In this document: positions 1,626 to 43,727 of the stretch, in pieces | How the letters are laid out: every line of letters begins with the position of its first letter | Position numbering within the stretch: the first letter of the stretch is position 1 | Virus record (IMG/VR): IMGVR_UViG_3300037440_000064 | Location: 1 to 47,487 of that record | Direction: 5' to 3' (one strand) | Source of the DNA: a virus | Taxonomy: Duplodnaviria; Caudoviricetes | DNA: 47,487 nt | Notes under the pieces: model-generated | What the model saw: only the letters and a program-made list of their open reading frames with translations | What the model was told of the DNA's origin: nothing | Database searches by the model: none | Program-made: the position numbers and the translations under genes

Positions 1626-1948
1626 ACCAATTTGAGGAATACGAGGTTAATAGCGAAGAAAACGCCGAAGCGGAAAAGGACGACAAGAAACGTAACCTTT
1701 TGCGGATAGCGCGTATACGTGAAATCATGCATACTAAAGGTTTTTACGAGGTGGTGAATTTAGTACTTGACATTTCTAACTTTAACGGTAATAATTACGT
1801 ACCTAATTCAGACGAGACGGTATATCTTGAAGGCCGTAGATCAGTGTTTATTGATATGTTGGCAGTATTGGAAGAGTGTGATTTATACTACTATTCTAAA
1901 CTATTAAAAGAAAAGGCGGAGGAGGTCGAAAATGGAAGGAGAGAATAG
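1622..1948 (+). CDS. Small protein following portal (Bbp19-like)
   Basis: YLEGRRSV motif and position between portal and scaffold, as in BPP-1-like phages. Confidence 0.6.
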   Translation: MNQFEEYEVNSEENAEAEKDDKKRNLLRIARIREIMHTKGFYEVVNLVLDISNFNGNNYVPNSDETVYLEGRRSVFIDMLAVLEECDLYYYSKLLKEKAEEVENGRRE

Positions 1949-31773: not shown

Positions 31774-31837
31774 TGTGTAACCTCCCTAACTAACCTGTTA
31801 GTTAAGCTTGATACTGCTCAACTAACAGGTAGTGGAA

Positions 31838-32279: not shown

Positions 32280-32585
32280 TTACAGGCTGTTTAATAAATC
32301 ATCCACATCCGATAAGTCACCAGTATCAGGTGGCCCCTCTTCTATCCCTTTTACCAAGGGAGAAGAACCCACGTACTTCGGGTTGCTTACCAACTTCCAC
32401 AAATCCAAGTCTCCGTTCGTGACCTCCTTCAGCATAAGAGCTACTTCAAGACTCGCTTGACTCTTCCCTTTTGCTATGTTTGACAACGCTTGTTTAGATG
32501 GTGAATCCCCAAACTTTTCAATAAGCCTTTTATTAAGCTCAGTTGGCCCCATCCGTTTTAACTCCAACCACATTTCCAGTTTCAT
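32280..32585 (-). CDS. XRE/Cro-like helix-turn-helix protein
   Basis: SKQALSNIAKGKSQASLEVALMLKEVTNG pattern; start at ATG 32585 after GGAGG, overlapping the primase stop. Confidence 0.7.
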   Translation of the reverse strand: MKLEMWLELKRMGPTELNKRLIEKFGDSPSKQALSNIAKGKSQASLEVALMLKEVTNGDLDLWKLVSNPKYVGSSPLVKGIEEGPPDTGDLSDVDDLLNSL

Positions 32586-35458
32586 ACCTCCACCTCCTCT
32601 AAATTTTGAGGATAGAATTTCCACCCTCTACGGTTTTCTTCTTTGGTATTTATAACCCTCCTCCCTGTTACTAACTGAATATCTCTCGCCGCTACCCCTA
32701 GCCTGGTGCCTAAAGACCTTACTGTCTTTACCATGTGTGCGGGGGCTATCTCTATTGAGAAGCCACTAGCATTTACTATCTTTCCAGCGTTCTCGTTTAC
32801 AAACCTTCGATAGTATATGTAGCACTCATTGGTATCCAAAAATACCTCCCTACGCTTTATGAATATCGGGTCATTACATATCCAAGCAATTACTAGACTT
32901 GTTGTGGAGTTAAGTATTGCTTCGTTAGCGTTTTCAAATCTCTTCCTTTCACCTACCTTTCTAGCTAACGCTTTCTCTGACATTTTATCCACATTGGGAT
33001 AGGCTTTCATTAATAAAGCTGCTTCCATCCTTGCCTGATCGCTCCACAGAGAGCGGTCATTTAAGTCTCGGTTCTTTTCTCTCAGCCTATTTACCCTAGC
33101 TATCACTCTTGATATGAAGAACATAAGACCGATACGCATCCGTGGACTTTCTTTTACCCATTTAGCGTACAAATCTCCTTTACAATTTTTCATATCAGAG
33201 GTTACTGCTACCGTGATAGTGCGTGATCTTAAATCCTGATTCGTAGTTACCGCAAGTAGTGCGGTTAATACTAAAGGTTTCTTTATAATCAAATCCAAGT
33301 ACCTTTGAGAGTACAATACCCTTAAATCGTATCTCCATCCAGTAGCTATTGAACAGAGCATATCCTGATCTCTGGGGGCTATTCCACTCAGGTTATCAAA
33401 GACTGTTACATGCCTGTTCCTAAGAGTTTTTGCCAAGTCCTCCTTTTTATACAGTCCGTTATGTAAGTCCGGCCCTTCTTTAATATCAGCTGAAGTGGGG
33501 TCACATAACTCCTTGGTGAAGACCGCTGTGCTGCTCTTTCCGTCTTCAGACCGTCCGGTTATTTGTAGCAGGTTAGCTGTTCCGGTATTGACAGTCGCTA
33601 CTGTTTGCCATGCAATCAACTCCAACAAATCAAGGTCATCAACAACTGTTGTAAACTCCCTGATACCCTCTAAGTAGTTGTCGATGTACAACATCTTACC
33701 CATTTCACCTAACGTTTCTATCTGCTCAGTGAAGTCGTCTACCTCCGCAACTAACGTGTTAGTTGAGTACCTCCATAAAACCGGAGCGGTTTGGGAAGGT
33801 ATTACCTTTACCCCTTTTTCACATATAACGGCAGTCCGCATTTCTCCCTGAAGAGTACTACCTAAGTTATAATAGGTTGTATTCTTACCGTTTACTACTG
33901 TTGAGTAACACCTGTTCTCAACTGGATAGCGTTTAAAAGGATTATAGATAGGGTCATCCTTTCGAGACACCAATATACGTAGTACCGTTCTCTCAAATTG
34001 GAAAGGAAGTTTCCCTCCATACAGCCCAAATGCCCTTGCGTATATCTCCTCTTCAACTCCTTCGTCTAAGGAGATAAGCTTGTACTTGTCGCCGTTTTCG
34101 ATCATGCAATACAGGCAGTTGTCGTTCTCTCCCTGTATCCATTTGAACTGATCTATGAGGGACTCGACCATCAATTCAGGGTCAAGTTTATCCCCCAAAT
34201 CTGAAGCCGCCTTTTCCAAATCAGCTATACTAACTTTTGTTTTTAACTCCCGCTTTATTGTGGATCGTACATCTACCCACCTTTCAGGCATCTTCGCTTT
34301 CAGGTGTCGTATTGCATCAAGGCAACTTCTATCGAACATCAAAGAAGAGTTCCCGCCGTTCTTTATTGCTTCTATGGCGTTTGTTACTTCTTGAACTTGT
34401 AAGTCTGATTGCTCCCCGAACTTTTTCTTTACCGCCGTTTGCAGATACCCTTTGATCTTCTCTCTGGTATATCTTTCCCGGTCTTCCTTCGACCCTCTTA
34501 CTCCGTGTTTGGTTATGTTCGCCCACATCTTAGTGTAGACGTTATTAACATGGTACACTAAGTCAGAGGTAACTGAAGAATCGCCTACCTCTTGAACCAG
34601 TTGAGCGCAAGCCCTATACGCTGGTTCGTTTATTCCGTGTGTCTGAGTACCACATAATGCTAATGTTTTCTCCCACGTAGCCCCTATAGGAATTTTACTA
34701 ACTAACGTGTTAGTTGTACCCGAACTTGTTTTTTGTTCTATATCTTGAATCAATCCATCCAACTCAGCCTTTCGTACATAAGGAGATAGGTGGTCACAAT
34801 GCTCTGTCAACCTTAGTGAACCAGGTAGAGGGTCGTTAAACCCCTGGCATACCCTTCTTGATATGTAGTCAGGCTGAATTGAGTGGAAAGACCTGTAATC
34901 TATTTTATAAACACCGTTCAGGGAATTGTGATTAAATCCCCAATCGTGTAAACTTTTAAGTGTTATTGGTTCGTCAAGTAAAAAGTATAAATGCGCTCTT
35001 AACTTATCCTTCGACCACATACTAGAAGACAACAAGCAACAAAACTGTACTCCTTTTAGTGCTTCTAAACCCATCCTATTTACTAGGATTTCGTTTACCG
35101 TTTTATATATTCCTTCTTTTGTTCCTAGTGAAAATCCTTCAGGTACAGGCCAGCTATCAGCATCGATCATTAAAAGGTTAGTATCTTCGCACTCAAAATC
35201 CGTCATCCGTCTATATGCTATCTTACCTAAGCCTTTAACTGGTCTACCGTATATCCTTATGACTTTTTTATCTGCACATCTAGCTAATAAACTATATAAG
35301 TCTGAAATCGTTTTTACTTCAGTGGTTGCGTAAGTAAACTTTAGTCCTAGCTCATACTCAGAGGTCAGTTTCGGCCTCCGAGTAGATTCCTCAAGAGCAA
35401 AGGATTTCGCTGTTACGGCGCTCTTCCAAGTTGGCCGTAGTATAGTTATGTTTGACAT
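32582..35458 (-). CDS. Primase-helicase (PrimPol-like N-terminus, SF3-like ATPase)
   Basis: MIDAD and RAHLYF catalytic-like motifs; GRSEDGKSS Walker A; VFDNLS Walker B; RVLYS; DLRSR. Confidence 0.75.
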   Translation of the reverse strand: MSNITILRPTWKSAVTAKSFALEESTRRPKLTSEYELGLKFTYATTEVKTISDLYSLLARCADKKVIRIYGRPVKGLGKIAYRRMTDFECEDTNLLMIDADSWPVPEGFSLGTKEGIYKTVNEILVNRMGLEALKGVQFCCLLSSSMWSKDKLRAHLYFLLDEPITLKSLHDWGFNHNSLNGVYKIDYRSFHSIQPDYISRRVCQGFNDPLPGSLRLTEHCDHLSPYVRKAELDGLIQDIEQKTSSGTTNTLVSKIPIGATWEKTLALCGTQTHGINEPAYRACAQLVQEVGDSSVTSDLVYHVNNVYTKMWANITKHGVRGSKEDRERYTREKIKGYLQTAVKKKFGEQSDLQVQEVTNAIEAIKNGGNSSLMFDRSCLDAIRHLKAKMPERWVDVRSTIKRELKTKVSIADLEKAASDLGDKLDPELMVESLIDQFKWIQGENDNCLYCMIENGDKYKLISLDEGVEEEIYARAFGLYGGKLPFQFERTVLRILVSRKDDPIYNPFKRYPVENRCYSTVVNGKNTTYYNLGSTLQGEMRTAVICEKGVKVIPSQTAPVLWRYSTNTLVAEVDDFTEQIETLGEMGKMLYIDNYLEGIREFTTVVDDLDLLELIAWQTVATVNTGTANLLQITGRSEDGKSSTAVFTKELCDPTSADIKEGPDLHNGLYKKEDLAKTLRNRHVTVFDNLSGIAPRDQDMLCSIATGWRYDLRVLYSQRYLDLIIKKPLVLTALLAVTTNQDLRSRTITVAVTSDMKNCKGDLYAKWVKESPRMRIGLMFFISRVIARVNRLREKNRDLNDRSLWSDQARMEAALLMKAYPNVDKMSEKALARKVGERKRFENANEAILNSTTSLVIAWICNDPIFIKRREVFLDTNECYIYYRRFVNENAGKIVNASGFSIEIAPAHMVKTVRSLGTRLGVAARDIQLVTGRRVINTKEENRRGWKFYPQNLEEVEV

Positions 35459-36458: not shown

Positions 36459-36484
36459 CTTGTGACCTCCAACTAACATGTTAG

Positions 36485-38936: not shown

Positions 38937-39590
38937 GGGTGTGACCTCCCTTTGATTTTAAACAACTAACGTGTTAGTTAAATCTCTTCCAAGTCATCTC
39001 GGTACTCTAAGAACATGTTTTTAATACCCGTAGGGATTTCATCCAGCCATACCAAAAGTTCTTTATCTAAACACCAATTTTGTCTTGTTAGATGGTATAT
39101 AAGTTGTGCAAACAACCTATCATCCCCTATAATATCCGTACCTTTACAAGATAAAGGAAAACCGGAAAAATCTAAGTCCACTTCCCGCAAGTCTGCTCCC
39201 TGCAAGTTTGCTTCCCGCAAGTCTGCTTCCTGCAAGTTTGCTTCCCGCAAGTCTGCTCCCTGCAAGTTTGCTTCCCGCAAGTCTGCTCTCCACAAGTCTG
39301 CTCTCCACAAGTCTGCTCTCCACAAGTCTGCTCCCTGCAAGTTTGCTCCCTGCAAGTTTGCTTCCCGCAAGTCTGCTCTCCACAAGTCTGCTCCCTGCAA
39401 GTTTGCTCCCTGCAAGTTTGCTTCCCGCAAGTCTGCTCTCCACAAGTCTGCTCCCTGCAAGTCTGCTGCCCGCAAGTCTACTTCCCGCAAGTCTCCGATT
39501 TCTAAAATGACCTTATTGTTAAATCTATTTCTAATCGTAATCATGGGTGTGACCTCCCTTTGATTTTAAACAACTAACGTGTTAGTTAAA
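38934..39590. repeat. 49-bp perfect direct repeat (38934-38982 and 39542-39590) flanking the pentapeptide gene
   Basis: CATGGGTGTGACCTCCCTTTGATTTTAAACAACTAACGTGTTAGTTAAA occurs twice. Confidence 0.95.
38978..39544 (-). CDS. Pentapeptide repeat protein
   Basis: About 21 tandem A(D/N)Lxx units encoded by a 15-bp DNA tandem repeat (about 39172-39494). Confidence 0.93.
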   Translation of the reverse strand: MITIRNRFNNKVILEIGDLREVDLRAADLQGADLWRADLREANLQGANLQGADLWRADLREANLQGANLQGADLWRADLWRADLWRADLREANLQGADLREANLQEADLREANLQGADLREVDLDFSGFPLSCKGTDIIGDDRLFAQLIYHLTRQNWCLDKELLVWLDEIPTGIKNMFLEYRDDLEEI

Positions 39591-39804: not shown

Positions 39805-39826
39805 AGTGTGACCTCCAACTAACGTG

Positions 39827-39916
39827 TTAGTTAAGCACTTTTGCCAGCTCTATAATAAAGCTGATTGCCATGGTGCCTAACAGGATGGCAGTGATAAGTC
39901 CTTTCAAGAAATCCAT
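39827..39916 (-). CDS. 29-aa hydrophobic peptide (not in ORF track)
   Basis: MDFLKGLITAILLGTMAISFIIELAKVLN; first ORF after the promoter; stops inside a palindrome copy. Confidence 0.55.
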   Translation of the reverse strand: MDFLKGLITAILLGTMAISFIIELAKVLN

Positions 39917-40258: not shown

Positions 40259-40302
40259 GGTGTGACCTCCGTAATATTTGACCAAGGCTAACTAACGGTT
40301 AG

Positions 40303-40410
40303 TTAGAATATTGTGTTACAAATAGCTATGCCTATGCCGATACCGATACCTATTGTGGCCCATCCAACTAACGACACCAAACCTACAATCAATAATCCCT
40401 TTGCGCTCAT
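40303..40410 (-). CDS. 35-aa Gly-rich membrane peptide (not in ORF track)
   Basis: MSAKGLLIVGLVSLVGWATIGIGIGIGIAICNTIF; RBS AGGAGG; ATGA overlap with the upstream gene; stop overlaps a palindrome copy. Confidence 0.6.
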   Translation of the reverse strand: MSAKGLLIVGLVSLVGWATIGIGIGIGIAICNTIF

Positions 40411-41733: not shown

Positions 41734-41799
41734 GGTGTGACCTCCATAAAGTTTGGTTGTGTTGTCCTGCATCCGAGTGGCTAACCAGCCTATGAGAGA

Positions 41800-41828
41800 A
41801 TAATAAATCATCTTGAAAGGGATTGCAA
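41800..41828 (-). promoter_or_regulatory. Putative leftward early promoter
   Basis: TTGCAA, 17 bp spacer, TATTAT; palindrome copy 15 bp upstream of the -35. Confidence 0.55.
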
Positions 41829-42094
41829 GTATTTATTTTCACCAACTAACCGTTAGTTACTTCTTTTATCCATGAAATGAGGATAAGTAGTTAATATTAT
41901 TAGATAAAATAATTTATATCCCGACTTGCATTATATCTAGTGAGGTCGGTTAGCCTGAATAGCCTGAATAGCCTGAAAGGGTGGAGAATCAAATATATTG
42001 CCTTGTGGTGGGCTTTTCAAGGGTAGGTGTGTAGGATAGCCTAGGTAATATATTTACGTGGTTTAGAAGGGCAAATTGAGAGGAGTAGAGAGGC

Positions 42095-42275
42095 TGTCAA
42101 CCCGGGTGTTGTCAACCAGGGTGTGGTCAACCAGGGTGTTGTCAACAGGGGTGCTGTCAACTGATAGAGGGTGTGGTCAACCAGGGTGTTGTCAACCAGG
42201 GTGTTGTCAACCGATATTATTGCTGCACTGCAACATTGTCAACCAATATTATTGCTGCACTGCAACATTGTCAAC
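42095..42275 (+). repeat. Iteron-like 15-bp tandem repeats (CAGGGTGTTGTCAAC) plus two 30-bp repeats
   Basis: GTCAAC at 42096, 42111, 42126, 42141, 42156, 42176, 42191, 42206; ATATTATTGCTGCACTGCAACATTGTCAAC at 42214 and 42246. Confidence 0.9.
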
Positions 42276-43059
42276 TGAACGAGCGCTCGGTTTGTCATGT
42301 ACTACGAGTTGTAGTAATATCAAGTATTTATGATATCGGTTGACGTCAACCAGCGTAAAGGATGTACTTGTCAATTGACTTTGCTAAGGGTTTGTTTTTG
42401 TTGAGAAAATGACATGGCTGTACACTAAGACATCTTTGAAAAATTTTTGTTATAAGAGAAGTATATATGGTGGTCTAATGGTAGTACCAAAGTACCAATT
42501 GTTCTTCTTTTTCCTATAGGAAATTTCGCGCGAACATGTCCTGACGTACAGCCATGTCTTTTTGTCAGTCATTCCGGGGGGTTATCGCAGGTTTAAAGGA
42601 TGTACAAAGGATGTACTTTTGGCGTACTGGCTTGAAATCATTACGAAAAATCTTTGTCAACTAACTCTGTCAACCAATTAAAGGATGTCTTTTACCTAGT
42701 AATAACAGATAGTTACAACTGGTTGACAAGCTTTGTCAACTAACTCTGTCAACTAACGTGTATTAGTTGACGTCAACTAATCAATGCTACTACCTGCGTG
42801 TTTCACACGAAGCCTTAGTTGACGTCAACTAACCAATGCTACTACCCGGTCAACTAACACGGTAGTTGACAAGGTATCTAGTTGACAGTGTACTCTCTCA
42901 TTTGACGCGTCAACCAATCAATGCTACTCCCTGATTGCGTCAATGGGTAGATGACAAGTTGCGTATTAGTTGACAGTTCGGTGTATCCGATTGACCGCTA
43001 CTCGTCAAGGGGGGGGGCCGGGGGAAAATGGTAGGTGCGGCGGCGGGGGGCCAGGCACT

Positions 43060-43196
43060 CACATAAAATTTTTCAATTTTTTAAAGTTGTCAACTAATAT
43101 GATACCACATAAAATTTTTCAATTTTTAAAGTTGTCAACTAATATGATACCACATAAAATTTTTCAATTTTTTAAAGTTGTCAACTAATATGATAC
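43060..43196 (+). repeat. Three tandem 45-46 bp AT-rich repeats
   Basis: CACATAAAATTTTTCAATTTTT(T)AAAGTTGTCAACTAATATGATAC at 43060, 43106, 43151. Confidence 0.95.
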
Positions 43197-43268
43197 ACCT
43201 CTTTGTCAACTAATATGACCCCCCAGCTTGTCAACTGATATGGGACAGAAACTTTTTTAAAATAAGTA

Positions 43269-43296
43269 TTGACTCCAATACGAAAAGTGTTATATT
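43269..43296 (+). promoter_or_regulatory. Putative promoter of the small RNA
   Basis: TTGACT, 16 bp spacer, TGn-TATATT (extended -10). Confidence 0.6.
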
Positions 43297-43302
43297 GAAA
43301 GC

Positions 43303-43413
43303 ATTGGAACACCTCTTACTTTCTCGGTAAGGGTTCCTCGCTACCAGAGGGCGTGACCTCCCTCCCCAATCCCTCGATACGGACTCATCCACCGTACCGG
43401 GGGATTTTTTTTT
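43303..43413 (+). ncRNA. Predicted ~110-nt sRNA with an anti-RBS seed
   Basis: Promoter upstream; 5' hairpin; GTGACCTCCCTCCCC at 43353-43367; terminator hairpin 43368-43406 with T-run to 43413; no credible ORF. Confidence 0.6.
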
Positions 43414-43668
43414 GTTCACACACCGCCAACACCACAAAACCACCTTCAATATATTCCCTTCTAAGCCACGCAAATATATTAGATAGGCTATCCTACGCAC
43501 CCTATCAGGCAAATCAAGCCACGGGCCAATATATTTAATCTAACGCCCTATTCAGGCCCATCGACCTACCCCTATAAACCTCCTCCAACTCCAAACACCC
43601 TACCAACTCAATATATCTAATAATTTCAACTACTTACATCTAACTAACGGGTTAGTTAAAAATCCTTG

Positions 43669-43698
43669 TTGACAACTCCACCAAAAATGTACTATAAT
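43669..43698 (+). promoter_or_regulatory. Sigma70-type promoter for the packaging/structural arm
   Basis: TTGACA, 18 bp spacer, TATAAT; palindrome copy ends 11 bp upstream of the -35. Confidence 0.8.
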
Positions 43699-43727
43699 AT
43701 AGAGCAATTACAACAGGAGGAACCGTT

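Follow-up and report, generated by a model that had tools for sequence, protein, structure and literature searches.

A predicted antisense RNA of an uncultured phage complementary to a leader tag shared by presumed early genes

Here, we report a putative small RNA encoded by an uncultured podovirus-like phage. A stand-alone unit of promoter, hairpin and intrinsic terminator on the plus strand contains the exact complement of a 9-nt leader tag, GGAGGTCAC, found ahead of six presumed early genes on the minus strand, and both the unit and the tag recur in a close relative (G002, hereafter the sister genome). To judge from sequence comparison, the unit very probably gives rise to a transcribed, structured RNA (43303-43413). 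With moderate confidence, based on modelled pairing, we read this RNA as a trans-acting antisense damper of the class of genes marked by the tag, GGAGGUCAC.

The whole stretch of DNA analyzed (47,487 nt; the window) is a virus record rated as near complete (96%), and the five sequencing runs containing at least half of it, two of which may be its source, are sediment metagenomes. The rightward arm encodes terminase, portal, head and T7-like tail proteins and an endolysin; the leftward arm encodes small proteins, an AAA ATPase and VWA/metallopeptidase pair, exonuclease, SSB, DNA polymerase, nuclease and helicase. The best cultured matches are only 30-46% identical. Genes are called early by position only: they are read leftward and lie between the replication genes and the divergent region, and the two presumed early operons sit behind promoter-like sites at 41828/42020 and 39965. 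The sister genome is complete, with a TerL 92% identical to that of the window and four-fold sites 48-64% identical; three more distant relatives have TerL identities of 70%, 50% and 41%, and G001 is likewise a complete genome. Two further features of the minus strand were noted. A 958-aa ORF (32582-35458) sits where a primase/helicase is usually found; it lacks an obvious Shine-Dalgarno (SD) sequence, belongs to no Pfam family and matches only a weak PHROG of unknown function. Small hydrophobic ORFs of 29 aa (39827-39916) and 35 aa (40303-40410) in the early operons, both untagged and without a PHROGs family, are kept in the sister genome and are possible membrane peptides.

The tag matches the window eight times, always on the minus strand (chance mean, 0.27; 0 of 100 shuffles reached eight): six copies 3-4 nt ahead of the ATG of presumed early genes, one inside an ORF and one inside the plus-strand unit (Table 1). 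Within the two presumed early operons, it precedes 6 of 12 genes, compared with none of the 37 other scored genes (Fisher p = 6.6e-5), and it is the top shared leader 9-mer in the window (six leaders) and joint top in the sister genome (five leaders). The sequence-only reading, an earlier annotation of this DNA, had described an exact complement of the tag on six early leaders, extended to 11 nt at the AAA and pentapeptide genes, and both statements were confirmed; the A after the tag mismatches the seed in 10 of 11 tagged leaders. A further match reported in an HTH gene at 32419 does lie within an ORF, although neither Pfam nor PHROGs supports the HTH label; there, the protein sequence may be what keeps the copy.

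Table 1. Coordinates of the plus-strand unit and of the tagged and near-tag leaders in the window
Feature	Position	Strand	Basis or remark
Sigma70-type promoter (TTGACT-16-TG.TATATT), A/T-rich tract upstream	43269..43296	+	Sequence scan; boxes kept in sister genome
Predicted noncoding RNA, ~110 nt (~150 nt in sister genome)	43303..43413	+	Start placed from the -10 box
5' hairpin P1, 8 bp (arms 43313-43320/43326-43333)	43313..43333	+	Pairs 8/8 in both genomes
29-nt core, identical in window and sister genome; contains hairpin P2	43338..43366	+	Alignment
Seed GUGACCUCC(CU), complement of leader tag	43353..43363	+	Tag copy at 43353-43361
Intrinsic terminator: 14-pair stem, 9-nt loop ACUCAUCCA, U9	43368..43413	+	Strongest intergenic terminator in both genomes
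Tagged leader, first gene of presumed early operon 1 (ATG 41733, 363 aa)	41734..41745	-	Tag kept in sister genome
Tagged leader, 82-aa gene (ATG 40258)	40259..40270	-	Motif scan
Tagged leader, 72-aa gene (ATG 39804)	39805..39816	-	Motif scan
Tagged leader, pentapeptide-repeat gene (ATG 39544)	39545..39559	-	11-nt match, one mismatch, 3 further pairs
Tagged leader, AAA ATPase gene (ATG 38936)	38937..38951	-	11-nt match, one mismatch, 3 further pairs
Tagged leader, 70-aa gene (ATG 36458)	36459..36470	-	Sister genome: identical leader, different protein behind
Tag copy inside ORF 32280-32585 (codons K-E-V-T)	32419..32427	-	Copy in sister genome too; no start codon follows
Near-tag leader GGGAGGTTAC, exonuclease gene	31774..31786	-	One G-U pair with seed; identical in sister genome
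Near-tag leader GGAGGTCG, late head protease/scaffold gene	1921..1931	+	Kept in sister genome

Leaders are visibly duplicated and swapped between genes, and the tag could therefore spread without any reader; tagged slots carry different genes in the window and the sister genome. The tag is kept in all three shared leader slots (at the AAA gene, with a change directly after the 9-mer); for untagged leaders, the corresponding figures are 3 of 14 in the arm that carries the tag (p = 0.03) and 9 of 21 overall (p = 0.11), in a comparison chosen after the fact. Separately, a block of palindrome plus leader (39559-39589 and 38951-38981, minus strand) is duplicated exactly over ~45 nt ahead of the pentapeptide and AAA genes, a sign of gene gain via leader-cassette duplication.

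Every feature that the sequence-only reading named in the stand-alone unit (promoter, 5' hairpin, C-rich segment, 13-bp terminator stem and T run) is present. The -35 box lies at 43269-43274 and, across a 16-nt spacer, the -10 box of the TG-n-TATATT element at 43291-43296; taken by itself, the promoter match does not exceed chance (43 sites against 31.2 ± 6.7 expected), and 12 bases around its -10 box are common to the operon-2 promoter in the window, not in the sister genome. The fold of 43269-43413 has a z score of -2.7. The 3' arm of P1 could alternatively pair with 43342-43345, and P2 (GAGGG, 43347-43351; CCCUC, 43360-43364) is predicted in both genomes and invariant, so it has no support from covariation. 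The C-rich segment GTGACCTCCCTCCCC spans 43353-43367. The terminator stem (43368-43382/43392-43406) comprises 13 Watson-Crick pairs and one G-U pair, with one A.C mismatch, and the T run covers 43405-43413; a simple scan missed this terminator (9-nt loop plus mismatch) and a second search detected it.

In both the window and the sister genome, this is the only intergenic terminator unit with a complement of the tag. It lies on the strand opposite its targets, 1.6-6.9 kb from them. Comparison of the two genomes gave no conserved ORF on either strand of the unit. Read on the minus strand, the 43353 copy is followed by GCCCTCTGGTAG with no ATG, GTG or TTG, and a CTG-started frame behind it is open in the window and frameshifted in the sister genome; the copy is not itself an RBS, as had been argued. 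Rfam returned no hit at gathering score across the window and nothing credible in 43000-43720, only five weak hits (E ≤ 10).

The unit of the sister genome keeps the promoter boxes, TG and spacing, the 29-nt core and the U tail, with ~44 extra bases at the 5' end. Between the two genomes, the terminator stem shows two double compensatory changes and three single pair-keeping changes, none broken, plus one mismatch turned into a pair and one extra pair; in P1, one pair is doubly compensated (C-G/U-A) and three single changes pass through G-U. G-U pairs in the changed stems occur six times when read on the plus strand and once on the minus strand, which points to a plus-strand RNA. Because the sister genome keeps the promoter, the core and the tagged leaders, and the stem changes are compensatory with plus-strand G-U pairs, a conserved noncoding RNA is likely. 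The core is one of six identical runs of at least 29 nt in the 2-kb intergenic region. Conservation of the unit is that of two sister genomes; the sister genome is the only homologue found and its seed is identical to the window's, so seed-leader covariation is absent from the comparison.

Strain contigs from seven runs were aligned, and the seed is unchanged in the four that cover it (X3, X4, X6 and X7). Elsewhere in the unit, the X6 contig has lost the promoter TG (43288 T>G), and the X7 contig (depth, 3.4) carries 43316 T>C, which breaks a U-A pair of P1 and may be an error, and 43368 A>G, with the pair kept as G-U. The X4 contig has 43385 T>C in the terminator loop; a second seed in that loop was considered and rejected, given this variation and no target common to both genomes.

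None of the three more distant relatives has the unit, and their shared leader motifs include one, zero and zero exact tags. G001 has one exact tag, plus a near tag on its AAA leader, yet no unit, so the tag does not need the RNA; as the two carriers are sisters, the pattern of presence and absence amounts to a single independent contrast. Searched with an nhmmer profile of both units, G001, G003, G004 and the other loci yielded no more than the seed patterns. Pattern and protein searches of viral contigs recovered only the sister genome (six other pattern matches were due to chance), and a further scan gave five other loci, all unrelated. Metagenome contigs yielded 597 pattern stretches, none confirmed, and in a second scan one match in a coding-like context without promoter or terminator. 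One scan of genome contigs had no match and another, pattern based, none that was confirmed; annotated phages gave only one blastn match, with an E value of 6.

In the predicted folds of both genomes, the UGAC of the seed is unpaired in the P2 loop (P = 0.89-0.99) and the last CCCU, needed against the SD sequence, is paired in P2 (P unpaired ≤ 0.13). Such a display of tag-specific bases, with the generic anti-SD bases masked until pairing begins, would suit selective recognition. The RNA was co-folded with leader regions from -30 to +15, and net predicted binding ranged from -8 to -18 kcal/mol. Tagged leaders were bound more strongly than others in the window (-12.5 versus -7.4 kcal/mol; 6 versus 43 leaders, p = 0.005) and in the sister genome (-15.6 versus -10.2 kcal/mol; 5 versus 34 leaders, p = 0.008), a difference that is partly true by construction. 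With three tag-specific seed bases scrambled, the advantage was gone (p = 0.79 and 0.43, respectively). The AAA and pentapeptide leaders form 11 + 3 predicted pairs with the RNA; four of the six tagged leaders rank 10th to 22nd of 49, with several untagged leaders above them. The late head protease/scaffold leader ranks first in the window and third in the sister genome, and the exonuclease leader seventh and sixth, each via one G-U pair; both are possible extra targets in these models, the former outside the early class.

The proposal that one trans-acting sRNA addresses the tagged class thus stands in part. In its favor are a conserved, structured, noncoding unit, a seed complementary to the widest-shared leader 9-mer of both carriers and predicted binding that needs the three tag-specific bases; the rank of the late head gene tells against it. 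Host RNA polymerase would make the phage small RNA, the UGAC of the P2 loop would nucleate on the tag-specific GUCA, and the resulting duplex would open P2 and occlude the Shine-Dalgarno sequence with 9-14 pairs. Translation of the tagged genes in the presumed early operons would be lowered as a group, and the two near-tag leaders would perhaps be caught too.

Timing is the weak step of this mechanism. The promoter of the unit is of the same host type as those of its targets, so the RNA would be made alongside them; present from the start, it would accumulate as a delayed brake, a timer or dosage limiter and not a late-induced switch. The late operon also has a consensus promoter. The early-to-late switch that had been suggested is not borne out by a host sigma70-type promoter like that of the targets, nor by a tag on just half of the early-operon genes, and a strict switch of that kind seems unlikely.

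The RNA could instead come from a resident genome, in a carrier state or plasmid-like, and silence early lytic genes so as to exclude superinfecting kin, like c4 of P1. A host-type promoter requires no phage activator, c4, sar and STnc6030 offer precedents, and the palindrome present in 29 copies could represent operators for a repressor; however, neither a tyrosine integrase (PF00589) nor a serine-recombinase domain (PF07508) was matched in any of three genomes, two of them complete, which makes a role in immunity less likely. No antirepressor is among the tagged genes, and the pattern-based scan of genome contigs found no prophage relative. We consider this role improbable.

Equally improbable, in our judgment, is an element that controls or insulates transcription of the late operon after the repeats, with the tag read by a RegB/RegA-like protein or spread by leader duplication. 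The unit lies 315 nt before terS on the same strand, additional promoter-like sites in the tandem repeats aim into it, leaders are duplicated and shuffled, and T4 cuts early SD sites with the protein RegB. Yet terS is served by a separate 12/12 consensus promoter at 43669, present also in G001, which is without the unit; a protein decoy would bear the tag in sense, not antisense; and the invariant seed would be left unexplained. The pR'-6S-tR' segment of lambda is a short terminated leader read through by the antiterminator Q. Here, the Q family (PF06530) is matched in none of three genomes, and its absence together with the second promoter before terS makes a Q-type late leader less likely.

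About as improbable is a general anti-Shine-Dalgarno sRNA, directed mainly against host mRNAs or many phage mRNAs with GGAGG leaders, to which the tag match would be incidental. The C-rich CCUCCCUCCC tract, a second C/U-rich loop in the sister genome, untagged G-rich phage leaders that score equal to most tagged ones and the precedent of RsaE for SD-directed multitarget sRNAs all speak for it. Against it, when the 111-nt unit was dinucleotide-shuffled 20,000 times, ACCTCC was present in 2,583 shuffles and the full 9-mer in only 7, so the match exceeds what C-rich RNA alone gives; the predicted loop exposes tag-specific bases and hides generic ones. Least probable by some distance is that the 43353 copy is a relic or cryptic minus-strand leader conserved by recent recombination with no regulatory RNA: it is identical to the AAA/pentapeptide leader at 14 of 15 nt, and several long identical runs share the intergenic region, but both flanking stems changed and kept their pairs with a plus-strand G-U bias, and the minus strand has no start codon or conserved ORF.

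Other intergenic elements were noticed. The palindrome AACTAAC-n(1-4)-GTTAGTT occurs at 29 sites in the window (e.g., 39818, 41845, 43643 and 44205), mostly at gene junctions on both arms and directly upstream of both divergent promoters, with 28 copies in the sister genome, 39 in G001 and none of such form in G003 or G004; by analogy, the set looks like genome-wide operators, recalling ESAS or stoperators. An inverted duplication (41884-42076 and 43451-43636, 75-85% complementary) gives the two divergent promoters, early and late, a common upstream layout, and 41884-41940 is a 57-nt run identical in the sister genome. An origin of the seed through this duplication was rejected, its position and orientation being wrong. 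An array of 15-nt GGGTGTTGTCAACCA repeats occupies 42088-42270, and many GTCAAC/GTTGAC sites are spread across 42100-43250; the sister genome has a run of TGTCAAG heptamers in the corresponding place. The G-rich motif GGGGGAAAATGGTAGGTGCGGCGGCGGGG (43013-43048) is identical in the sister genome and is a candidate packaging or genome-end signal; G001, G003 and G004 have comparable G-run/AAAA/GC motifs in the equivalent position. Directly upstream of the unit, 43060-43250 holds three 45- to 46-nt repeats and shorter copies; each long copy reads TTGTCA-17-TAAAAT on the plus strand, and the repeats of the sister genome keep both boxes with other spacers, forming TGTCA..TGACA inverted repeats. These may be tandem promoters or iteron-like sites.

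Among known RNA types, HDV-like ribozymes are nested double pseudoknots with P2 closing after J4/2, and UCCUCGCU and CCAAU/CGAAU recall HDV ribozyme L3 and J4/2. This candidate was rejected since, on inspection of both genomes by eye, nothing beyond J4/2 pairs with the bases that precede the putative P3, and there was no Rfam ribozyme hit. With trans-acting base-pairing sRNAs, the unit shares its own promoter and intrinsic terminator, the lack of a conserved ORF and a conserved fold; its seed is conserved and complementary to target starts, with the 5' half predicted to be exposed and the 3' half to be paired. RsaE of Staphylococcus aureus is described as an RNA of ~100 nt with a housekeeping-sigma promoter, hairpins and an exposed C-rich seed that pairs with several SD regions (PMC2965222). 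The predicted RNA resembles it in length (~100 nt), housekeeping-type promoter and C-rich seed against several SD regions. RsaE, however, is cellular and pairs imperfectly with host metabolic genes, whereas here a phage RNA has a perfect 9- to 11-nt match to the phage's own tag, and there is no sequence likeness.

A phage parallel is c4 of P1 and P7, described as a phage antisense RNA that blocks genes of its own phage by pairing (PMC8198154, PMC2864571). The RNA predicted here would share this with c4 (immI, RF01695). It differs in giving no match to the RF01695 covariance model, nor any among the five weak hits to E = 10; in standing alone with its own terminator, whereas c4 is a piece of the c4-icd-ant operon (no icd or ant family was found among the scanned ORFs); and in having five to six dispersed targets in two operons that share an SD-overlapping tag. 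c4 is needed for lysogeny of a temperate phage; no integrase, recombinase or antirepressor was found here. The unit would thus work like c4 but is not a c4 member. As described in PMC12197685, the target of sar, OOP, aQ or STnc6030 is in each case a single phage gene or operon, and c4 is no different in the account of PMC8198154. In the literature covered, with subscription papers mostly outside it, we found no phage sRNA that represses a class of its own early genes via a shared RBS tag.

Class-wide early shutdown is described for RegB of T4, which acts on early mRNAs via an SD-region motif with a 3' extension (PMC3014915). The purpose here would be parallel, a class-wide early damping through an SD-region motif; RegB, however, is a protein nuclease and the reader here would be an RNA. 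No RegB-like protein was found among the scanned ORFs. Were one RNA to read the tag on dispersed leaders, such class-wide early shutoff would be reached by means of RNA, and newly gained genes could enter the regulon simply by landing behind a tagged leader.

The leader tag itself fits the description given for the Start-Associated Sequences (SAS) of mycobacteriophages in cluster K and Microbacterium phages in cluster EF, an asymmetric, over-conserved RBS motif of nonstructural genes, in one orientation and often after an inverted repeat (PMC3203893). The two differ in sequence and length (GGAGGTCAC(ACC), 9-12 nt, here versus the 13-nt cluster K consensus GGGATAGGAGCCC), this podovirus-like phage is unrelated, and the antisense copy here comes with a promoter and terminator of its own and shares its DNA orientation with the leaders. 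Four K1 phages are described as having one stray reverse SAS each, at no gene start (PMC3203893). In two of the K1 phages, Anaya and Angelica (L060:9871-9883 and L061:10635-10647), the reverse SAS lies within a structured stretch of the transcribed strand: the predicted fold of Angelica places CCUCCUAUCC in a hairpin loop, and that of Anaya places it in a large loop on a longer stem; visual comparison shows a compensatory pair difference between the flanking stems. On these models, the reverse SAS is a candidate anti-SAS RNA, a lead from two related genomes; no RNA antisense to SAS was found in the literature covered, which mostly excludes subscription papers, and passages of papers from 2024-2025 still call the role of SAS ill-defined or unknown (PMC11373665, PMC12699233). 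Tentatively, unrelated phages may have repeatedly evolved a leader barcode, fused to the SD sequence of a gene class, and one reader RNA that presents the complement in a loop and times the shutoff of the class, with this unit and the reverse SAS as instances. If so, the purpose of SAS motifs would be explained, and the question of their function would have an answer that is testable in cultured phages.
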